DNA of 64,000 nt from an uncultured archaeon (GCA_963810275.1 CAWENF010000019.1:128001-192000); one strand, 5' to 3'; shown: positions 22,279 to 46,839, counted from the stretch's first letter. Translations and numbers: made by a program. The notes: generated by a model from the letters alone, not told the origin.

Positions 22279-24729
22279 TTATCTGCTGAATTTTATTCCC
22301 GTATGATCTAAAATCTTGTAGAACAGTAGCTTTAGTGGGTCTGTTATAAGCAACTCTATGAAGATATATCCGAGGATGAAGAGGGCAAGCGGCCAACCTA
22401 GGGGCGAAGGAAATAGAACCCCATAAACAGTTATCAGCACAGCGGTGGTTTGGGAAAACAAGATTGCCAACCCTAGCTGCTTAGCCGGTCGTATCGACCA
22501 GAATGGGCCTCTTGTTCGGGCCATTAAAAGAGTCATTTGGCTTGCCAGAGAAAGCTTTAGGTATATGAAGGCTTGAAGTACAGCGGGGCTGAGCATGAAG
22601 ACTTCTTTGCCGATGTAGAAAGCTCCAAAGGTTATTACAACTCCAACTGTTCCAAGCATCGTAGCCATCCCTAAGACCGTGCGCATGTTCCATTTTTCAG
22701 GAGACTTCGAGTAGTGCACGTTGTCGTAAGCAATTGTTATTATCGGCAGGTCGTTTAGCAACGCCAACAAAACAATCATCACGGCGGTAATCGGGTAGAC
22801 GTTGAATAGAGAAATCGTCAGCGTTATGAAAAGGACAACTCTAATGGTTTCAGCGATTCGGTATATGGAATAATGCTGCATTCGTTGGAATATTTGCCGT
22901 GACTGTTTTACAGCATCGATAATAACGGATAACCCGGGTTTGGTGAGAGCTATATCAGCCGCCGAGCGCGCTGCATCGGTTGCCCCTGAAACAGCAATAC
23001 CTGAATCGGCCTTCTTCAAAGCTGGTGCATCATTTACGCCGTCCCCAGTCATACCCACGATATGTCCATTATTCTGCAGAGTTTCCACGATGTCGTACTT
23101 GTGCTCGGGAAAAACCTCGGCAAATCCATCAGCTTCCTCAACTATTCTTTTGGCTTTTCGGTCGGGTTTATCAATGAAAGCAGAGGGGAGAACGATGTTG
23201 GTACCTAGACCGACTTCTTTTGCGATTTCTTTGCCTATAGCAATGTGGTCGCCCGTTACCATTTTTACGGCTATACCCATTTCCTCTGCAGTTTTTATAG
23301 TCTGGGCAGAATCCGTTCTGGGAGGGTCATGAAGGGCAATTAAGCCGATGTATTCCCATGTGCCTTCTCCAACTGTTTTGGCAACGCCAAGAGCCCTATA
23401 TCCCTTGGAAGCAAAATCGGCAACATCTTTCCCAATTTGGTCCTTAACTTTATCGTTGCCTTTAGACAGCTCAAGGATCACTTGAGGAGCGCCCTTAGCA
23501 ACCTGAAATTTTTTCCCTGCAGCGTCTTCTACAGTAGCCATCGTCCGTTTCACTACGGGGTCGAAGGGCTTAAAACCAGTCACGTTGTACTGACCGAGGT
23601 TAATGTTGACTTCTTTTATGCTGCGTGTTTTAATGATTATTGCGTCGTCAATTGGATCTTTGTCTTCTTCCCTTGACGATAGAGTTCCATAGAGAAGTAT
23701 GTCTTCTTCTTTGTTTTTTGCATATGGTCGCAGTTCTGCGACGGTTAGTTTGTTTTCGGTTATAGTTCCGGTTTTATCTGCACAGAGAATGTCGATACCC
23801 GCCATTTCCTCGATGGACACCATTTTGCTGACGATTGCCTCCTTCTTTGACAGCGCAATCGCGCCAATAGCCATAGTAACTGAGAGGACTGCGGGAAGTG
23901 CAGCTGGTATGGAAGCAACGATTAAAACTAGTGCAAACTGAATCAGCGTCGAAAGGTCTTGACCTCTAAAGATGGATACCAGCATAATCACGGTGACAAG
24001 GATTACGGCAAAGAAAATCAGGTAGTCGCCGATTCTGACGACAGCTTTTTGAAAATGACTAGTGGTTCCGGATTCTTGAACCAGTTTTGTGGTTTTACCA
24101 AAATAAGTACTGGAGCCTGTGCTAACTACCAGTCCCTCCATTTCACCCATTTTGATTATAGAACTGGAGTAGGCGACATCGGCGGGATGTTTATCAACCG
24201 GGAGTGATTCGCCGGTAAGTGCAGATTCATCTGCCTGCAGATAGTCACCCTCTATGAGTTTGAGGTCTGCGGGAACTATGTCGCCCAATCGAACACGCAC
24301 AACATCTCCGGGCACTAGCTCCTTTGAGGGCTTCTGAATCCATTTACTGTCTCTTAGCACACGCGCTGTGGGCGAGAGCCGCTTTTGCAGGGCTTCTATT
24401 GCGTTGCCTGCTTGCCGTTCCTCCCAGAAGCCAACTATCGCATTCATGAATAGCAACAGGAGAATTATGCCGAAAGAGGATACATCACGCAGGATGGCTG
24501 ACATCACAACGGCGGCTTCGATCATGAATGGTATGGGACCCCAAAAATAACTGAGAAATTTAACTATTGGGTTGACTTTTTTTTCGGCGATGTCGTTGGG
24601 ACCATATTTTTGGAGTCGCTTCGCTGCTTCCTCAGAGGAAAGACCATTTTTATTTGCTGATAGCACCTCGAATATTTTATCAGCACTGGTCTTCTTCGCT
24701 TCCTCTGTAGATATGGAAACTTCTCCCAA
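22279..24729 (-). CDS. Plasma-membrane proton-efflux P-type ATPase (type IIIA), copy 1
   Basis: FWGPIPFMIE, LTGES, IPAALPAVLSV, CADKTGT, TGDGVNDAPALK, YRIAETIR, ALLNDLPI. Confidence 0.92.
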   Translation of the reverse strand: MGEVSISTEEAKKTSADKIFEVLSANKNGLSSEEAAKRLQKYGPNDIAEKKVNPIVKFLSYFWGPIPFMIEAAVVMSAILRDVSSFGIILLLLFMNAIVGFWEERQAGNAIEALQKRLSPTARVLRDSKWIQKPSKELVPGDVVRVRLGDIVPADLKLIEGDYLQADESALTGESLPVDKHPADVAYSSSIIKMGEMEGLVVSTGSSTYFGKTTKLVQESGTTSHFQKAVVRIGDYLIFFAVILVTVIMLVSIFRGQDLSTLIQFALVLIVASIPAALPAVLSVTMAIGAIALSKKEAIVSKMVSIEEMAGIDILCADKTGTITENKLTVAELRPYAKNKEEDILLYGTLSSREEDKDPIDDAIIIKTRSIKEVNINLGQYNVTGFKPFDPVVKRTMATVEDAAGKKFQVAKGAPQVILELSKGNDKVKDQIGKDVADFASKGYRALGVAKTVGEGTWEYIGLIALHDPPRTDSAQTIKTAEEMGIAVKMVTGDHIAIGKEIAKEVGLGTNIVLPSAFIDKPDRKAKRIVEEADGFAEVFPEHKYDIVETLQNNGHIVGMTGDGVNDAPALKKADSGIAVSGATDAARSAADIALTKPGLSVIIDAVKQSRQIFQRMQHYSIYRIAETIRVVLFITLTISLFNVYPITAVMIVLLALLNDLPIITIAYDNVHYSKSPEKWNMRTVLGMATMLGTVGVVITFGAFYIGKEVFMLSPAVLQAFIYLKLSLASQMTLLMARTRGPFWSIRPAKQLGLAILFSQTTAVLITVYGVLFPSPLGWPLALFILGYIFIELLITDPLKLLFYKILDHTGIKFSR

Positions 24730-24967
24730 AAAACCAACTCTTTAAAACTGAAAAACTAGATAATGTGTCTCCTTAGAGCTTCTAAGTATATTTACTTATG
24801 TGGTTACATTGCAGCATCACTAATTACCGGAATTGAATCATTTTTGACTATCCTCTTGAAGCAGAAAGCCGATTGCTAGAAAAATTTTTAAGAGCCAAAA
24901 CGAATAATAAACATTGCTTTATGGCAACAAACAGCCTTTAGCAATTTATTATTTTGAAGGAATCTTT

Positions 24968-27374
24968 TTGAGTAAATCCAATTCTTACATTATGTGGTTT
25001 GATGACGTCAACATAAACGACGTCCCCAAAGTCGGAGGAAAAAACGCTTCACTCGGAGAAATGATAAGGTCCATACGAAAAGAGGGCATCCGTATTCCCA
25101 ACGGATTTGCCACAACCGCCAAGCTCTACTGGGACCTAGTCGACAAGAACGGCTTAAGAGTAAAAATTGAGTCTCTGCTTCAAGACCTAATCAAAGAGAA
25201 AAACCGCTAAAAGATGTCGGCGCAGCTATCCGCCAGTTGTTCCTTGACCCCCTTTCCTCCCGAGATTGAAGGGGAAATCACAAAGGCATACGATGGGTTA
25301 TGTGAACGCTACGAAACAAAGGATGTGGATGTTGCGGTTAGGAGCAGCGCTACAGCAGAGGATCTTCCGGGAGCAAGTTTTGCGGGGCAGCAGGAGAGTT
25401 ACCTAAACGTTAGAGGGAAACCGCAGCTTCTTTATGCCTGCAAGAAATGCTTCGCATCGCTGTTTACTGATAGAGCCATAACTTATCGTGCCGAGCAGGG
25501 GTTTGAGCACATGAAGGTGGCGCTTTCTATTGGCATAATGAAGATGGTGCGTTCAGATTTGGCAGGTAGCGGCGTCATGTTCACTTTGGACACCGAGACA
25601 GGTTTTCCTAAAACGATAATAATCAACGCAGGGTGGGGGCTGGGTGAGTATATCGTGAAAGGCGAAATTAACCCCGATCGCTATGTCGTTTTTAAGCCTC
25701 CGCTTGGTGACCTAAAGATGGTTCCGATTTTAGAGAAGGCGTTGGGTACAAAAGAGAAGAAGCTCGTATACTCTGACTACGGGGACGACTCGACCAAGAA
25801 CGTTGAAACGGCGCAGCAGGAACGGGAAGCCTTCGTTCTTTCCGAGGAAGAAATTTTGTTGTTAGCGCGGTGGGGTCTGCGCATTGAAGCGCATTACAAG
25901 CGCCCAATGGATATTGAGTGGGCTAAAGATGGCGAACGTAATGAACTCTACATCGTGCAGGCGAGGCCTGAAACCGTGCAGAGTAGATTCAAAGAATCCA
26001 GCGGCTTAATGTCCTACAACCTCAAGGAAAAAGGCAAAGAACTCATAACGGGCATCAGTATCGGTCAAGCAATCGCCACAGGAAAGGTATGCAAGATTCT
26101 TGATGCAGCAAACATTGACCAATTCAAGAAGGGAGCTATCTTAGTTACCAAAATGACTGACCCAGATTGGGTCACTATCATGAAGGAGGCATCAGGCATA
26201 ATAACTGACTTTGGCGGTCGCACTTCCCATGCAGCCATAGTCAGCAGAGAACTCGGGATCACCTGCCATAGTGGGCACGGAGCGAGCTACCGAGGTTCTC
26301 CAGCCCGACCAAGCAATCACTATGTCCTGTGCTGAAGGAGAAACGGGGCATGTTTATGAAGGCATTTTAAAGTTTGACAAAACAAAAGTTGACATCAAGG
26401 GAATCCCTAAAACGAAAACTCAGATTATGATGAACATGGCTAGCCCCGATGCCGCCTACCGCTGGTGGCGCTTGCCCTGTGAAGGTATAGGCTTAGCACG
26501 AATGGAGTTCATAATAAACAACCTCATTAAAATCCATCCGATGGCGCTTATCAAGTTTAGCACCCTAAAAGATGAGGAGGCAATTGCCCAAATAAACGAG
26601 TTAACAAAGGGCTACAAAGACAAAACAGAGTACTTCGTGGACAACTTAGCTAAAGGAATCGCCCGCATAGCATCCGCACAGTACCCATACCCAGTCATCG
26701 TAAGAATGAGCGACTTCAAAACAAACGAGTACGCCAACCTTATAGGTGGAAAAACCTTTGAACCAAAAGAAGACAACCCAATGCTTGGCTTTAGGGGTGC
26801 CAGCAGATACTACAGCGATAGGTACCGAGAAGGGTTCGCGTTGGAGTGCCGTGCCATTAAGCGCGCAAGAGAAGAAATCGGGTTAGCTAACGTGGTTGTG
26901 ATGATTCCTTTCTGCAGAACTGTTGAAGAAGCACAGAAGGTAATCAAGGTGATGGCTGATAACGGTATAGAGCGCGGAAAAGGCGACTTTGAAGTCTATG
27001 TAATGGCGGAGATACCTTCAAACATTATCTTGGCTGACAAGTTTGCCGCTTTCTTCGATGGCTTCTCAGTGGGCTCTAACGATTTGACTCAGCTAGTACT
27101 TGGGATTGATAGGGATTCAGCCGAGCTAGCTTACTTGTTTGATGAACGCAACGAAGCAGTGAAAGACGCTATCAAATCGCTCATCGAAGTCGCCCACGCA
27201 CACACACCGCGGCGAAAAGTAGGGATTTGCGGGCAAGCACCCAGCGACTACCCTGACTTCGCAGCTTTTCTAGTCCGGTTGGGCATTGATTCTATCTCAG
27301 TTAACCCTGACAGCGTTATAGACGTGAAGAAGCGTGTGGCAGAAACAGAAAAGGAGACCTCGCAGCAGAAATAG
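24968..27374 (+). CDS. ppsA: Second PEP synthase (bacterial-like), interrupted by three 1-nt indels
   Basis: Joined ORFs give VGGKNASLGEM, RSSATAEDLPGASFAGQQESYLN, GGRTSHAAIVSRELG, DNPMLGFRGASRYY, GICGQAPS; frame breaks near 25200, 25248 and 26260. Confidence 0.85.
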
Positions 27375-39677: not shown

Positions 39678-41015
39678 TTGCCAATCTTACCAATAGATAC
39701 AGGCAGATACGGAACGCCTGAAATGCTCTCGATTTTCCAGGAAGAGAACCGCGTACAGAAACTCTTAGATGTCGAAGCAGCACTTGCTTTGGCGCATGCG
39801 GAAGTCGGTAACATCTCACTAAAAGACGCCGAGGCAATCGCTGAGAAAGCCTCCACCAAGTACGTCAAGGTTGAACGTGTTAAATCGATCGAGAAGGAAA
39901 TCAAGCACGACATCGCCAGTCTTGTCCGCGCCCTCAGCGAGCAGTGCGGCGAAAGCGGCGCATACGTTCATCTGGGCGCAACCAGCTACGATATCGTGGA
40001 CACGGCAAACGCTCTGCAGCTAAAAGACGCTATTGCCGTTCTGGAGAGCCGCCTTAAAGAATTCAAATGTATATTGCAAAAACAGGCGGACACCCATAAA
40101 GCCACCGTTATGATTGGCAGAACCCACGGTCAACATGCCCTTCCCATCACGCTCGGTTTTAAGTTCGCTGTTTGGGGTTACGAAGTCAATCGCCACATAG
40201 AGCGGCTGGACGAATGTAAAAAACGTGTGGTTGCAGGCAAAGTCAGCGGCGCCGTCGGAACACAGGCGGGTCTAGGCGAACACTCAACCGAAATTCAGCT
40301 TCTGGTTATGAAGCGGTTGGGCATCCCCGCAGCAGAAATCTCTACGCAAATCGTGCAGAGAGACCGCTACGCCGAGTTAATTTCCATTTACGCTATGCTT
40401 GCATCGTCGCTAGAGAACTTCGCAACCGAAATCAGAGAGCTTCAGCGCCCCGAAATCGCCGAAGTCTTCGAATCCTTCGAGGCAAAAAAACAGGTTGGCA
40501 GTTCAACTATGCCACACAAGCAGAACCCCGAAACCTGCGAGCGTGTTTGTGGTTTAGCCCGAATCGTCCGCAGTCTCAGTACTCCAGCTTTGGAGGACAT
40601 GGTGACTTGGCACGAACGCGACTTAACCCAATCGTCAGCCGAACGTTTTATTCTACCTGAATCCTCAATCACACTCGACTACATCCTGAGCCTCATGGTA
40701 AATATAGTTGCCAACCTAAGAGTCGACAAAGAGCGAATGCTTCGCAACATGTCCGCCACTAAAGGTCGTGCAATGTCGGAATCCGTTATGATGACGCTAG
40801 TTAAGAAGGGCGTGAACCGACAGGAAGCCCACGAGCTGCTCAGGCAACTCACAATCAAGAGTGCTGTTGAGAAGAAGTCGTTTAAGCAGACGCTGCAGGA
40901 AGACAAACTTGTGGCAAAGACTCTGTCGGAAGCTGAAGTTGACGCGGCGCTTAACCCAGAGAACTACTTGGGCACCGCCGTCGCTCAGGCGGAACGCTTC
41001 GCAAAGGGTGCTTAG
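39678..41015 (+). CDS. purB: Adenylosuccinate lyase
   Basis: HLGATSYDI, GRTHGQHA, GSSTMPHKQNP, HERDLT. Confidence 0.95.
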   Translation: MPILPIDTGRYGTPEMLSIFQEENRVQKLLDVEAALALAHAEVGNISLKDAEAIAEKASTKYVKVERVKSIEKEIKHDIASLVRALSEQCGESGAYVHLGATSYDIVDTANALQLKDAIAVLESRLKEFKCILQKQADTHKATVMIGRTHGQHALPITLGFKFAVWGYEVNRHIERLDECKKRVVAGKVSGAVGTQAGLGEHSTEIQLLVMKRLGIPAAEISTQIVQRDRYAELISIYAMLASSLENFATEIRELQRPEIAEVFESFEAKKQVGSSTMPHKQNPETCERVCGLARIVRSLSTPALEDMVTWHERDLTQSSAERFILPESSITLDYILSLMVNIVANLRVDKERMLRNMSATKGRAMSESVMMTLVKKGVNRQEAHELLRQLTIKSAVEKKSFKQTLQEDKLVAKTLSEAEVDAALNPENYLGTAVAQAERFAKGA

Positions 41016-43298
41016 AAGTCGAATAAGCCCCTCTGCTGGGTCTCGGGTTCTTTGGCAGCGGTTTTAAGTGCTTCCCATTCGTCTTTTTTGACGTAGCCGC
41101 CCACTTGTTCCTTAATTTTTTTCGCCAATCTTGGACCTACAGACGGTAGGTTTGTGAGTTCTTCTATTGAAGCGTGTTTTAGGTCTTCTACGGTTTGGTA
41201 GCCCGCGTTAAAGATTATGCGTCCGCGGACTCTGCCGACGCCCTCCAACGCCACAATTGGCATCAACTCCCGCTTAATGCCCTTGCCAACCCGCTCTACC
41301 AACTCCAAACTCATAGTGGTAATATCCTTGTTTTTAGCTACTACAGGCGACAGCTCCTCAGTTGCATGCAGTAGCCACTTTGCGTTCTCAATGGTGCGGT
41401 ACAGGTCGCCGGGCTGCACATTGAAGCGCTCCATCAGCTTGTCTTCGGGTACTTCCTCAATCCAACTGTTAAGCACCATCGCCGTCTTGACTTCGCCAAG
41501 GAACTCTGCGTAGCCGATGTAGTCGCTTTGTTCTGGTGCCTCAATGAAAAACTCTTCTATATGACCTTCGAGTTCGATGGAGAGTTTATCGACTTCGCGC
41601 TGGTAGGGGCGCATGGTTGGTCCCATGTCTGGGGTATGAGCGATTAAATGCAGCAGGCTAAACTCTGTTAGCATCGGCGGGTTATTTTGCAATGCATCGC
41701 GGATAATCACGCCTGAGAGGGGGTCAATGTATAGTTCGCTTATCCGCTTCCCAAACGGTGTCGCACGAATGTCATCTGCTCCGATCACATAAATCATTTT
41801 TTCATCGTGGAGGAATCGGAGGATTTTTTTGATGACGGCTTCGATGGCTTTAACGTCGTATTGGTACGCATAGAATGTTTTGGCGAAAAACTCGTAGATA
41901 CCCCTCTCAGTGTGGGCATAGTCCGAAGCTATAGTTGATAGGACGTGGGTGCGGATGATTTTCTCTACGGCAAGCCTTGACCAGATGCGTTCGGGCTTGG
42001 CGAGTACGTAGTTTTCCATGAGGAAATCCATTTCGTCCGCTGTTTTGGCCACTAACACGGATTCACCGAACTTGTCGTATTTCGGTCTCCCCGCTCTGCC
42101 CGCCATCTGCTTATAGTCAAGGACGGGGATGGGATAGTTACCCAAGCCTGCCTCGAAGCGGCGATAGTCCTGGATTATGACGGTGCGTGCGGGTAGGTTG
42201 ACTCCCCAAGCCAATGTCGGCGTCGCAGTCAAAACCTTGATTTTGCGCTCTTTGAAGGCATCTTCGATGATTTTTCGGTGCACCCCCGACAGCCCCGCAT
42301 GGTGGTAAGCCACACCGTTGCTGACAAGCTCGGCAAGTTCATCACTAAGCTGTGTGTGTTCGCCTGCATTACGGATCTTTTCCGCCTCTGCGTCGAGCAC
42401 CTCCCGGTTTCGGGCTTCGGTGCTTTTCTTAACCAGCTTGCTGCCGCTTTTAGGGACCAGAATCTTGTCCATGTGACTGGCAACAAGTTTCGCTGCTGAA
42501 ACGGAGTTCTTTCTTGTAGATGCAAAAATCAATGCCTGACCTCCACCTCGCAATGTGTTTAGCACCATGTTGACGACAGTTAAGCGGGTTTCTTGCTCGA
42601 TTTTGCGGGATTCCCCGTTTTTGTACTGGATTTCGTCCTGCAAGATGACGCCCTCTTTCAAATTGATGGGGCGCCAGGTTGTCACTATATGACGTGCATT
42701 TAGCCATCCAGCGATTTCATCCACGTTGTTGATGTTGCGGATAATGCGAGGATTTGGATTTGGGGATTACACTGCATGAGCCGCGCCAAGACGATTTCGA
42801 GGGTAGGTCCGCGGGCAGCCTCATTTAATAGGTGTACCTCGTCGGCTATGACGGCTCCGATGTTGTCCATCCATTTCGCTCGGTGTCGGAGAAGCGAGTC
42901 GGCTTTCTCGTTTGTAGTGATTATAACGTCATGGCGGGCGAGCCAATTGTCGGCGGTGTCGAAGTCGCCTGTGCTGATTCCGACACTCACCTTGCTGCCG
43001 TCGGGTTTGGTGATGGCGGTGTATTTCTGGAACTCCTCAAACTTCTCTGACAGCCAAAGCACGTAAGGGTGAAAGATAGATGACTTTTCCGCCTCCCTCC
43101 AGCACGTGCTTCATTGCGCAGAGCTCCGCTATGAGGGTTTTACCTGAGGCTGTGGGGCTTGCCAACAACAATATTGTGAGCCTCCGAGCACTCCTGCTCC
43201 GTATGCATTCCTCCTGAGGTGGAAACAGCTCGCAAATGCCGCAGCCCAGTGAGGATTTGTTTAACTGAATCTGCGATGGGCAGCTCTGCAATTTTCAG
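41012..43298 (-). CDS. hel308: Hel308/Ski2-like SF2 helicase, several frameshifts in the 5' third
   Basis: ASPTASGKT, DEVH, LSAT, HHAGL, TPTLAWGVNLPA, QMAGRAGRP, C-terminal HhH; pieces are spread over four ORFs. Confidence 0.88.
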
Positions 43299-43563
43299 GT
43301 TAATCGCCGAAATAAGTTATGATGTCGGTAAGTATGATTCGGTGGGTTATTAGGGTTTTTAACGTTTTGTTCTGCGCACTTTTTTCGGGTTGAGTAAGCT
43401 TTGTAGTTTAAATCACAAGTCATTACGTTATTTTTCCGTGATTTTAAATTCGACCCGTTTTATATTTGAAAATACGTTTTGGCGGTTAGGTTTTTTTAGT
43501 TGAAACCCCACTACACAAGGTGACGAGTTATCTATCCAACAAAAACTTATGGTAGGATACTGT

Positions 43564-44784
43564 ATGGTTGAAAACGTCAAAGAACTTCTCAAACTCCACG
43601 AAGGCATAACCCACGAAGTCTACCTAGACAACGAAAACAGCAGCATCGTCCCCCAAGAAGTCGTAGACGCAATGCTCCCGTACTACAACAAAAAAGCCTA
43701 CGGTAACCCCACTCTAACCCACAAACCCGGCTGGGAAGCATTCGAAACAGTAATGGGGTGCTTTCAAAAAATTAGCCGAACCTTAGGTGCAAAACTTGAA
43801 GAAGTCACCTTCACCCCCGGAGAAACCGAAGCCAACAACCTCGCAATCATAGCCGGCTGCTTCGCCCAAAAAGGCAAAGGCAAAAAAATAGTCATCTCAG
43901 AAATCGAACCCATAAACGTCCTGCAAGTAGCAGAAATGATGAGCAAATTCGGCTACGTAACCCAGAAAGTCCCCGTGGACCGAGAAGGCTTCATCAACTT
44001 AGAAAAACTCAAAGCAGCAGTCGACAAAGACACTGTCCTAGTCAGCCTCCACTCAGTGAACAACGAAGTCGGCACCATCCAACCCATAAAAGAAGCTGTC
44101 GATATAGCCAAAACCCAAAACCCAAACGTACTTTTTCACACCGACGCCTCAGACGCCTACGGCAGAATACCCCTAAATGTCTCTGACCTCAAAGTCGACT
44201 TGGCAACATTTAGCAGCTTCAAAATCCAAGGACCCAGAGGCATGGGCGCCCTCTACGTTAAGGAAGGCGTAACCCTCGAACGCATCATCGAAGGTCCTAT
44301 TGGCACGCAGAAGCTGTGGCCAGGTGTCGAAAACACTCCCCTTATCGTTGGATTTACCAAAGCCTCCGAGTTGGCATTCGCAGATTTCGAAAGTAACGTT
44401 GCGAGACTCCGAAGTTTACGCGACAAACTAGTAGATGGAATATTTAGCGAACTCACTGACCTGCGGTTTAACGGGCCTGAAGGCGACAAACGCAGCCCCG
44501 ACAACGCCAACATCAGCATTTTGCGAGCCGAAGGTGAAGCCCTAACAATAGAACTCAGCTTGAGCGGTGTCTATGTTTCCAGCGGAAGTGCATGCAGCCG
44601 CCGCCTCTTGCAACCCAGCCATGTCTTAATCGCCATCGGACGCGTTTACGAAGAAGCCCACGGCAGTATTCTTATGAAAGTTACGCGCAGCCACACAGAA
44701 GATGATATTAGTTACGTTTTAGAAGTTCTACCTAAAGCAGTGAACCGTATCAGAGGGATAGTTGGCTCAACAGGAGTGCACTAA
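43564..44784 (+). CDS. IscS/NifS-like protein with a degenerate PLP/substrate site (probable pseudo-desulfurase)
   Basis: Group I fold and SSGSACS loop present, but canonical motifs are replaced by DNENSS, GETE, EPINV, DASD, SSFK, WPGV and GSILMK. Confidence 0.85.
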   Translation: MVENVKELLKLHEGITHEVYLDNENSSIVPQEVVDAMLPYYNKKAYGNPTLTHKPGWEAFETVMGCFQKISRTLGAKLEEVTFTPGETEANNLAIIAGCFAQKGKGKKIVISEIEPINVLQVAEMMSKFGYVTQKVPVDREGFINLEKLKAAVDKDTVLVSLHSVNNEVGTIQPIKEAVDIAKTQNPNVLFHTDASDAYGRIPLNVSDLKVDLATFSSFKIQGPRGMGALYVKEGVTLERIIEGPIGTQKLWPGVENTPLIVGFTKASELAFADFESNVARLRSLRDKLVDGIFSELTDLRFNGPEGDKRSPDNANISILRAEGEALTIELSLSGVYVSSGSACSRRLLQPSHVLIAIGRVYEEAHGSILMKVTRSHTEDDISYVLEVLPKAVNRIRGIVGSTGVH

Positions 44785-44785
44785 A

Positions 44786-45301
44786 ATGTCACGTATACCA
44801 TTACCATACAACCCTAAAGTTATGGATTTGTTCCGTAACCCCAAAAACCTGGGCAAAATGGAGGACGCAACCGTCATCGCAATCGCAGGTAACCCTGCAT
44901 GCGGAGACATGATAACCTTCTACATGAAAATCAAGGAGCAGACCCAGGTTATCGAGAAGGCTCAGTTTGAAAGCTACGGCTGCGCAGCCAACATCGCAAC
45001 CAGCAGCATAGTAACGGAGATGGTCAAAGGCTTAACATTGGAAAATGCCTGGAAAAACATCACCTGGCAGAAGGTCACCGAGGAAATCGGCGGCCTGCCC
45101 AGTGTTAAATTCCACTGCGGAGTCCTAGCCGTCGGCGCACTTAAACGTGCAGTTAGGCTTTACTTTGAACAGAAAAAAATCCCAACCCCCGACTGGCTTC
45201 CAGCAGAACACACATTCGAGGAAAAGCAAGCGCTTGAAGAAGAGGAATTGGCAAAGACTCTCTCTAAGAGGATGAAGCCTGAGGCAGAAAAGAAACAGTG
45301 A
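44786..45301 (+). CDS. iscU: Fe-S cluster scaffold IscU/NifU with a charged C-terminal extension
   Basis: GNPACGD, YGCAANIATSS, LPSVKFHC (three Cys plus His). Confidence 0.92.
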   Translation: MSRIPLPYNPKVMDLFRNPKNLGKMEDATVIAIAGNPACGDMITFYMKIKEQTQVIEKAQFESYGCAANIATSSIVTEMVKGLTLENAWKNITWQKVTEEIGGLPSVKFHCGVLAVGALKRAVRLYFEQKKIPTPDWLPAEHTFEEKQALEEEELAKTLSKRMKPEAEKKQ

Positions 45302-46533
45302 ACATCCAAGCTATACGCCGGGACTTCCCCATAATAGAGAGGACAATCAACGGCAAACCTCTCATTTACTTTGATAACGCAGCAACCACCCAGAAACCTC
45401 GCCAGGTCATCGAAGCAATAGTCGACTTTTACAATAATCACAACGCGAACGTGCATCGCGGCGTACATACGCTGAGCATGGAAGCCACAGAAATGCACGA
45501 GCAAGCACGCGAACGGATCGCCGAATTTATTAATGCTAAGTCGGAGCGTGAAATCGTTTTTGTTAGGGGTACAACCGAAGCCATCAACCTCGTTGCGCAT
45601 TCGTTGGGCTGCAGCAGCCTAGGCATAGGGGATGAAGTGCTGGTTTCGCTTATGGAGCATCACAGCGACATCGTGCCTTGGGAAATCCTTGCTCAGTGTA
45701 AGGGCTTTAAAATTAAATATGCAAATGTATTTGACAACGGTACTCTTGACTACGAGGATTTTGAAGCTAAAATCAACAAGAACACACGAATATGCTGCCT
45801 AAGCCAAGTCAGCAACGTAACAGGTGTCATAAACGACGTTAAACGAATAACTAAAGCCGCCCACGACAGCGGTTCTCTGATGCTTGTTGACGGCGCCCAA
45901 TCCGTACCTCACATGCCAGTGGATGTGCAGGACATCGGCATAGATTTCTTGGCGTTTTCGGGACACAAAATGCTCGGACCCACAGGAATCGGCGTTCTTT
46001 ACGGCAGAGACGATGTGCTCAAAAAGATGACTCCTTTCCAAGGTGGCGGAGAAATGATAAAAGAAGTCTCAATGCAACATGGGCACTGCACAATTTCTTG
46101 GAATGAGCTACCATGGAAGTTTGAGGCAGGCACCCCAAACATTGAAGGTGCAATAGGGTTTGGTGCCGCCGTTAAATACCTCCAAAACCTGGGCATGCAA
46201 AGCGTGTTTAGCCATGAAAAAAAACTGACAGAGTACGCTTACAGCCGCCTACGAAATTTAAGTAATATACACCTCTACGGCACAACTGATGTGTCCAAAA
46301 AATGTGGCATCATACCTTTTGGTATAGAAGGCTTCAGTTCGCATGAAACTGCAGCGCTGTTTGATGAGTTTGGCGTTGCACTGCGTAGTGGCTACCACTG
46401 CGCACAGCCGCTGCACGAAATCTTAAAACTAAACTCTACAGCGCGGGCAAGCTTCTACATATACAACACTAAAGAAGAAATAGACCGTTTTATTGAAGTC
46501 TTAGGGGAGATAGATAATGTCTACAGTCGCTGA
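45298..46533 (+). CDS. sufS: Group II cysteine desulfurase SufS
   Basis: FDNAATT, RGTTEA, MEHHSD, VDGAQS, FSGHKM, FEAGTP, RSGYHCAQP and ARASF are all intact. Confidence 0.92.
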   Translation: MNIQAIRRDFPIIERTINGKPLIYFDNAATTQKPRQVIEAIVDFYNNHNANVHRGVHTLSMEATEMHEQARERIAEFINAKSEREIVFVRGTTEAINLVAHSLGCSSLGIGDEVLVSLMEHHSDIVPWEILAQCKGFKIKYANVFDNGTLDYEDFEAKINKNTRICCLSQVSNVTGVINDVKRITKAAHDSGSLMLVDGAQSVPHMPVDVQDIGIDFLAFSGHKMLGPTGIGVLYGRDDVLKKMTPFQGGGEMIKEVSMQHGHCTISWNELPWKFEAGTPNIEGAIGFGAAVKYLQNLGMQSVFSHEKKLTEYAYSRLRNLSNIHLYGTTDVSKKCGIIPFGIEGFSSHETAALFDEFGVALRSGYHCAQPLHEILKLNSTARASFYIYNTKEEIDRFIEVLGEIDNVYSR

Positions 46534-46774
46534 TTATGTCTCGCGTATCGAGGGCACTTGTGGCGCAGAAAGCGACGTCATAGTTAACTTCAAATACGAA
46601 AAAAAAGACGAAGCCATCGCTAACATAATGAAAAAAGCTACGTTAAAAAACACCATCGCAGGAATAATTTTCGAGTTAACGTTTGACGGGCGCTCTTTTC
46701 GACTTTACACAAGCGGTAAAGCTATCTTCCGAGGATTCAAAACTAAAACCGAACTAGTGAATTATCTTGGCTAA
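46517..46774 (+). CDS. Small single-Cys protein resembling the C-terminal domain of ThiF/MoeB-family adenylyltransferases
   Basis: EGTCG...FELTFDGRSFRLYTSGKAIFRG; overlaps the sufS stop by 17 nt. Confidence 0.65.
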   Translation: MSTVADYVSRIEGTCGAESDVIVNFKYEKKDEAIANIMKKATLKNTIAGIIFELTFDGRSFRLYTSGKAIFRGFKTKTELVNYLG

Positions 46775-46839
46775 ACTTCTGCTCTAACCGCACGAACCAT
46801 TTTTATAGATTCACATATAAATAGAACCAAAAGCTAAAG

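Follow-up and report, generated by a model that had tools for sequence, protein, structure and literature searches.

A protein with the fold of the cysteine desulfurase IscS and a remodeled cofactor pocket is encoded at positions 43549 to 44784 of the DNA stretch analyzed here, 64,000 nucleotides from an uncultured archaeon (GCA_963810275.1 CAWENF010000019.1:128001-192000; hereafter the window). The names in the source records place the organism in the Bathyarchaeia. We consider it reasonably probable that this IscS/MisS-fold protein is non-catalytic and cofactor free, and that it docks the scaffold protein IscU and lends it a Cys loop, with sulfur supplied by SufS. We favor a pseudoenzyme because contacts to the phosphate and ring of pyridoxal 5'-phosphate (PLP) and to the substrate carboxylate have been removed and a Glu has been put into the phosphate loop. 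Fixed replacements affect the His that stacks on the ring, the substrate Arg, the O3' contact, and two of the four phosphate contacts, and the new Glu and Asp residues in the pocket are invariant. From this pattern we infer the loss of cofactor and activity.

The subject gene is an intact open reading frame (ORF), as follows.

43549..44784, + strand: IscS/MisS-like protein of 411 amino acids (406 amino acids from the 43564 ATG), type I cysteine desulfurase fold, remodeled cofactor pocket.

The alternative start at 43564, the second ATG in frame (Met6), yields a product of 406 to 407 amino acids and is the majority choice in public gene calls. A Pfam scan matched the protein to PF00266 (Aminotran_5, class V aminotransferase) with 180.1 bits. 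All NCBIfam equivalog cutoffs were missed: the protein scored 359.5 bits against a cutoff of 530.75 for NifS (TIGR03402), 286.9 bits against 643.2 for IscS (TIGR02006), and 284.9 against 548 for PRK14012. An AlphaFold2 (AF2) model built from a 99-row alignment reached a mean predicted local distance difference test (pLDDT) score of 94.2 and a predicted template modeling (TM) score, pTM, of 0.92. Foldseek matched this model to human NFS1, Archaeoglobus fulgidus IscS, and Escherichia coli IscS with TM scores of 0.86-0.89 and root mean square deviations (rmsd) of 1.5-2.0 Å. The Pfam score and these TM values identify an IscS-type class V aminotransferase fold; NifS structures were also matched. 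The top solved sequence match was chain 9wep_A (290.2 bits). Upstream of the gene, a TATA-like run, TTTTATATTT, occurs at 43458..43467 within a 257-base AT-rich spacer, some 80 to 105 bases from the two candidate start codons.

Relatives came from two draws of genomes. In a draw of 41 related genomes, 28 (the window's own included) carry an ortholog, 63-90% identical, that is either intact or cut off by the end of a contig, and the 20 intact copies in the genus are 75-90% identical to the window ORF. The wider draw covered 201 genomes of the class, 53 of which gave a match at a threshold of E ≤ 1e-105, and these divide into two tiers. Tier A holds 43 genomes with 42 distinct sequences at 59-100% identity; these genomes are kin and the counts below are not independent, though they span eight or more of the class's family codes. 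Tier B holds 10 genomes at 48-53% identity and is an older sister form. The window protein and its relatives were aligned by MAFFT to IscS of E. coli K-12, taken from NC_000913, with the following result at the active site (window residues first).

43633..43644, + strand: E29-N30-S31-S32 for E. coli S10-A11-T12-T13; the first three residues are E, N, and S in 42/42 tier A and 10/10 tier B sequences.
43819..43830, + strand: G91-E92-T93-E94 for G74-A75-T76-E77; E92 in 42/42 tier A sequences, Ala or Gly in 10/10 of tier B.
43909..43911, + strand: P121 for H104 of the E103-H104 motif; Pro in 42/42 tier A sequences, His in 10/10 of tier B.
44143..44154, + strand: D199-A-S-D202 for D180-A-T-Q183, with Asp180 retained as D199 and Gln183 replaced by D202; invariant in tiers A and B.
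44212..44223, + strand: S222-S-F224-K225 for S203-G-H205-K206, with Ser203 and Lys206 retained and His205 replaced by Phe.
44317..44328, + strand: W257-P-G-V260 for R240-S-G-T243; Trp in 52/52 sequences, V, I, or L at position 243, and Thr in none.
44578..44595, + strand: mobile Cys loop S344-S-G-S-A-C349 (E. coli C328), retained; Cys in 41/41 tier A sequences reaching it and in 10/10 of tier B.
44671..44673, + strand: L375 for Arg354; Leu in 51/51 sequences reaching the position.

This alignment bore out all seven motif substitutions listed in a preliminary description made from the sequence, together with the features it gave as retained: the Schiff-base Lys (K225), the VNNE motif (N171-N172-E173), and the SSGSACS loop (S344 to C349). 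In E. coli numbering, the window protein keeps N35, T76, N154-N155-E156, D180, S203, K206, and the S-S-G-S-A-C328 loop. Eleven side chains that contact the cofactor or substrate in E. coli IscS were counted (N35, T76, H104, N155, D180, Q183, S203, H205, K206, T243, and R354). Five are replaced and six retained, and A75 has become Glu besides. The preliminary description held that most PLP- and substrate-binding residues were lost; the loss itself stands, and "about half" is fairer than "most," since five of the 11 are replaced.

Sorted by function, the changes fall on several parts of the site. In IscS, His104 stacks on the PLP ring and the A75 loop binds the PLP phosphate; the R240-S-G-T243 loop reaches the cofactor of the partner subunit, and Arg354 binds the substrate carboxylate. 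The window protein has P121 in place of the stacking His and D202 in place of the O3' contact Gln183, and the carboxylate-binding Arg is a Leu (L375). Among the phosphate contacts, T93 and S222 are retained, F224 and V260 replace His205 and Thr243, and E92 lies in the phosphate loop. The Schiff-base Lys and the Asp180 that contacts the pyridine nitrogen are both present (K225 and D199) and invariant in all 52 sequences of tiers A and B. The catalytic Cys is carried on a long flexible loop, and pLDDT is low at model residues 345-347 (numbering from Met6), as expected because the loop is flexible. These residue roles in IscS are taken as background; the terms His104, Gln183, and Arg354 do not occur in the review PMC8918507.

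Tier A is uniform at the new residues and variable at some of the old ones. In E. coli numbering, E10, N11, S12, E75, P104, D180, D183, K206, and W240 are found in 42/42 sequences, and L354 in the 41/41 that reach the position; position 243 is V or I. The new acidic residues and the Trp thus show no variation. Position 205 is Y in 34 sequences, F in seven, and N in one, position 76 is T in 34, S in five, and V in three, and N155 has given way to Pro or His in 11. The variation at T76, N155, and H205 suggests that cofactor binding is under no constraint in tier A. Tier B has E10, N11, S12, D183, W240, V/I/L243, and L354 in common with tier A. It lacks Arg354, Gln183, and Thr243, and retains His104, His205 (10/10), Thr76, and Ala or Gly at position 75. 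Conservation within the clade peaks around the Cys loop. It is at least 90% in the segment corresponding to E. coli 308-317, which we take to belong to the IscU contact.

A background family was drawn from the best 150 of the 50%-identity representatives among 35,373 matches. One hundred full-length members of these 150 have all nine of H104, N155, D180, Q183, K206, R240, T243, C328, and R354; they were chosen as canonical on those nine positions, hence their invariance there. Eighty columns reach at least 85% conservation across the 100 canonical representatives; the target clade retains 56 of them and alters 19 (A11, T12, T13, S38, R55, A59, G75, H96, H104, L114, M151, Q183, H205, K211, G233, E236, R240, T243, and R354). 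Elsewhere in this family, the Schiff-base Lys is replaced by D, T, M, S, R, G, or L in 13 of the best 150 representatives, some of them bacterial by record name. Inactive IscS-like proteins may therefore be widespread and may have arisen independently several times.

Purifying selection on the IscS-like gene is strong. Pairwise ratios of nonsynonymous to synonymous change (dN/dS) over 406 codons had a median of 0.061 and a range of 0.025-0.169 (160/351 pairs with usable 0<dS<2.5). The same replacements occur in 28/28 aligned orthologs. The alignment of orthologs that the preliminary description had proposed as a check accordingly found the substitutions conserved, and canonical residues, which it had named as evidence of recent decay, were not seen in close orthologs. 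Recent decay is ruled out by fixation in 42/42 tier A sequences and the median dN/dS of 0.06; the same two results support the earlier proposal of a selected pseudoenzyme or a new chemistry. One cluster departs from this picture of intact genes: in G022, one further genome of the genus among the 41 drawn (contig C1, about 187400..190700), the IscS-like gene is fragmented into several pieces and has internal stops, while the match to SufS begins at model position 65. This cluster may be wholly degraded or badly assembled.

A careful tree of 52 rows, with its root set by the outgroup rows rather than inferred, grouped tiers A and B as one clade (support 99/99), tier A as a clade within it (99/99), and nine tier B rows as another (100/99). 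Proteins of the A. fulgidus kind, in which the Lys is changed to Asp, group apart from these in a clade of their own (100/99) that lies among canonical sequences. The target lineage and the Lys-to-Asp proteins were separate starred clades both in this tree and in a quick tree of 68 rows. On residue pattern and phylogeny, the window protein appears to belong to a separate lineage of inactive IscS, different in its replacements from the A. fulgidus type.

Three genes follow the IscS-like gene on the same strand.

44786..45301, + strand: IscU-type scaffold, 171 amino acids (NifU_N, 134.9 bits), starting 1 base past the stop codon of the IscS-like gene.
45298..46533, + strand: canonical type II cysteine desulfurase SufS, 411 amino acids (NCBIfam sufS, 573.8 bits against a cutoff of 475.1).
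46517..46774, + strand: small Cys protein, 85 amino acids (88-89 in relatives); Cys15-Gly16 invariant and placed in a hairpin loop; gene overlapping that of SufS.

Aligned to E. coli IscU, the scaffold has equivalents of C37, D39, C63, H105, and C106, which are all of the cluster ligands, as well as the LPSVK motif; it ends in a conserved acidic tail of about 40 amino acids. The SufS gene overlaps the IscU stop by 4 bases. The small Cys protein is conserved, with Cys15-Gly16 invariant in an 11-sequence alignment, and its AF2 model has a pLDDT of 85.9. It gave no Pfam or NCBIfam match and no PDB fold match by Foldseek at E ≤ 0.001. A wide VIA structure search reached a best Z of 5.5, rated common, and gave no fold; its weak rows include TATA-binding protein (TBP)-domain proteins, which also account for 13% of one atlas cluster. 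The window copy ends four residues before those of its relatives, and at 46760..46790 there is one extra base relative to locus L043 near the stop, which looks like another assembly indel.

We predicted a complex of SufS with the small Cys protein. The score was 0.42 (runs of 0.29, 0.47, and 0.42) against 0.01 for the best control, with contact agreement of at least 83% and partner pLDDT of at least 79 from shallow alignments. In calibration, the mark was met by 58/80 solved complexes and 2/110 mismatched pairs; it was met at a score of 0.60 or less by just seven of those 80 solved complexes and by both mismatches. We treat this predicted contact as a lead that the modeling supports weakly.

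The cluster is kept together in relatives. IscU and SufS lie 3' of the IscS-like gene in 25/26 relatives' loci that reach past it, and the order IscS-like-IscU-SufS-small is retained in nine of 10 extended loci. Class-wide, the four genes occur in three orders: IscS-like-IscU-SufS-small, SufS-IscS-like-IscU-small, and IscS-like-IscU-small with SufS on the opposite strand. Tier B loci have IscU alone beside the IscS-like gene. In the 201-genome draw, tier A always comes with both an IscU-type scaffold gene and the small Cys protein (43/43 genomes); the latter is found in 0/10 tier B genomes and in 3/148 others. A SufS match is present in 42/43 tier A genomes, 2/10 of tier B, and 86/148 others. 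At locus L021 (G011, contig C2), the IscU gene 3' of the IscS-like ortholog is in two pieces, which suggests a frame break.

The window's own genome is 92.6% complete and has four class V matches above the Pfam cutoff: SufS, the IscS-like protein studied here, a second IscS-like gene, and a transaminase-like protein. SufS is the sole class V protein found there with the complete desulfurase residue set. In the second IscS-like gene (L002; contig C17 of G000, about 24389..25917), Lys206 is replaced by Asp, Gln183 by Ala, and Arg354 by Met; this gene is followed by its own IscU with a Cys-rich C-terminal extension. Judged by their residues, both IscS-like genes of the organism are non-canonical. 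The genome also has three IscU-like genes and one SufB-like gene, and no SufE match was found in it at this completeness. The third IscU-like gene (L042; contig C26 of G000, about 79112..79468) is solitary and has neither the first cluster Cys nor an equivalent of His105.

The closest studied parallel is IscS of A. fulgidus. According to three papers (PMC8918507, PMC13066941, and PMC7585200), that protein has no desulfurase activity and uses a Cys to ligate the [2Fe-2S] cluster held on IscU; it has Asp (Asp199) in place of the Schiff-base Lys, binds pyridoxamine 5'-phosphate (PMP) or PLP, and belongs to a system whose sulfur source is stated there to be open. The window protein resembles it in its type I fold (PDB structures 4EB5, 4EB7, 4HVK, and 4R5F; TM 0.87-0.89, rmsd 1.5-1.6 Å, 274.6 bits), in being archaeal, in having IscU encoded alongside, and in its retained Cys loop. 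It differs in retaining the Schiff-base Lys. Moreover, Lys-to-Asp relatives (L002, L036, L037, and P0138, on which this comparison was made in place of A. fulgidus IscS itself) retain His104, Arg240, and Thr243, all of which the window protein has lost. The window genome holds both apparently inactive types, Lys-retaining and Lys-to-Asp, each with its own IscU. For the A. fulgidus pair, which we compared by its description rather than its genome, no SufS or small Cys protein is reported.

Canonical IscS, NifS, and MisS proteins (E. coli IscS, Methanosarcina acetivorans IscS2, and 9wep_A) share the fold, length, Cys loop, and IscU partner gene of the window protein, but not H104, Q183, H205, R240, T243, and R354, which are among its 19/80 altered columns. 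According to PMC7585200, M. acetivorans IscS2 binds PLP and is active, whereas its paralog IscS1 is said to be without PLP-binding residues, including the Lys, and is suggested to have an A. fulgidus-like role. The window protein is unlike IscS1, as so described, in retaining the Lys. PMC13066941 describes the MIS system (MisS-MisU) of archaea as a two-gene unit of an IscS-like and an IscU-like protein without chaperones or carriers. The window locus agrees in that IscS-like and IscU genes are adjacent and the cluster holds no other gene of the iron-sulfur cluster (ISC) system. It also resembles SufS-SufU and SufS-SufE pairs in that SufS is encoded next to an IscU-like protein and perhaps a small acceptor with a Cys. 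Unlike SufU, the window IscU has the His105 equivalent, and its SufU score is 61.7 against a cutoff of 92.5. A putatively dead type I desulfurase within the cluster sets the locus apart from sulfur mobilization (SUF) systems so far as our literature search reaches. That search, which did not extend to the MIS-defining paper, returned no paper on a Bathyarchaeia cysteine desulfurase with IscU or SufS, and a search on cysteine desulfurase pseudoenzymes and PLP returned only an unrelated survey.

The residue pattern could also be read in other ways. The new acidic residues E29, E92, and D202, together with D199, might have rebuilt the pocket as a site for a cation (for example, ferrous iron) or another small ligand, in which case the Cys loop would carry iron, or iron and sulfur, to IscU. 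The three new acidic residues and the Trp occupy positions that line the PLP site in IscS and are invariant in 42/42 tier A sequences; specific replacements that are then conserved look like remodeling rather than drift. We also know of no defined iron donor for minimal IscS-IscU systems. The carboxylates could, on the other hand, merely pair with Lys225 and fill an empty pocket, E92 is absent from tier B, and a cation site is an idea suggested by the residue pattern. We regard a rebuilt pocket as improbable, if the best placed of the alternatives. Next, and likewise doubtful, comes a hybrid iron-sulfur machine in which SufS would generate a persulfide, the small Cys protein would carry it, and a dead IscS with an acidic cation site and Cys loop would deliver sulfur, and perhaps iron, to IscU.

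A changed reaction ranks below both as an unlikely reading. Here, PLP or PMP would still be bound, through Lys225, Asp199, Thr93, and Ser222, and would act on a substrate without a free alpha-carboxylate, such as protein- or carrier-bound cysteine or an amine; such a substrate would explain both the replacement of Arg354 and the acidic pocket. The invariance of Lys206 and Asp180 (52/52) and near-invariance of Ser203 (51/52) fit continued binding, as does the PMP bound by A. fulgidus IscS despite its inactivity. Tier B also keeps His104, His205, and Thr76, and its protein is the best class V match in three of five genomes scanned with PF00266, which lack a SufS-strength match. Tier A argues the other way: it has Pro for the stacking His and Glu in the phosphate loop, its His205 and Thr243 positions are hydrophobic or aromatic, Thr76 and Asn155 vary, and the cluster itself encodes a canonical SufS. 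That the gene is a functionless decaying relic or an assembly artifact is very improbable indeed. Frame breaks do occur nearby (a helicase gene in three pieces and the shortened small ORF), and the G022 copy is broken. Against this stand the intact ORF, its 75-90% identity to the 20 intact genus copies, a residue pattern fixed across the class, and the low dN/dS. Alignment, dN/dS, and class-wide fixation rule out an artifact; the preliminary description was right that the substitutions lie in an intact ORF and are not explained by indel errors.

For the non-catalytic, IscU-docking protein that we favor, we propose the following mechanism. By analogy with A. fulgidus IscS, the IscS-like protein would keep the IscS-type dimer and dock two IscU molecules. 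The Cys349 loop would either ligate the [2Fe-2S] cluster as it forms or relay a persulfide. The neighboring SufS would make sulfur from cysteine, and this sulfur would reach the IscS-like/IscU complex directly or via the small Cys protein. His104, His205, and the Ala/Gly75 loop, the last of the cofactor contacts, would have been lost in the lineage that has the small Cys protein and a clustered SufS. Their loss in that lineage only would fit a takeover of the chemistry by SufS. Conservation of the Cys loop and of the 308-317 segment, along with tight gene coupling, points to the docking and loop role.

Several observations weigh against this proposal. The suggested loss of PLP and activity is drawn from residues whose roles are taken as background, and we assume on the basis of homology that the new acidic residues lie close together in space. 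Lys206, Asp180, and Ser203 are invariant or nearly so, and their retention in a cofactor-free pocket needs another cause, such as a buried salt bridge. Because inactive A. fulgidus IscS binds PMP or PLP, an eroded pocket need not be empty. Tier B is also difficult to accommodate: no SufS match was found in eight of its 10 genomes, and its IscS-like protein is the best class V match in the three of five scanned genomes mentioned above. The ancestral form may have some activity, or tier B organisms may use sulfide. Finally, because 86/148 genomes without the IscS-like gene have a SufS match, the presence of SufS is unspecific, and only its clustering is specific to tier A.

A. fulgidus has so far provided the one studied case of an inactive IscS. 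To judge from residues and phylogeny, the lineage described here would be a second and independent one, and the first that our searches found tied to SufS and a small Cys protein. It offers a natural experiment, in which an older form with a partial cofactor site and IscU alone can be set against a derived form with the small Cys protein and a clustered SufS. It raises the idea that the IscS fold has a scaffold or loop role separable from catalysis, and the further idea that components of the ISC and SUF types can be combined in one system. Public records label these proteins cysteine desulfurase, an annotation that is probably wrong for thousands of Bathyarchaeia entries.

Elsewhere in the window, a Hel308-type archaeal helicase at 41012..43291 on the - strand lies in three overlapping ORFs (43291..43037, 43062..42700, and 42724..41012). 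These match successive DEAD and Helicase_C parts, and the gene is one continuous frame in five relatives. Its two frame breaks are either assembly indels or the mark of a real pseudogene.

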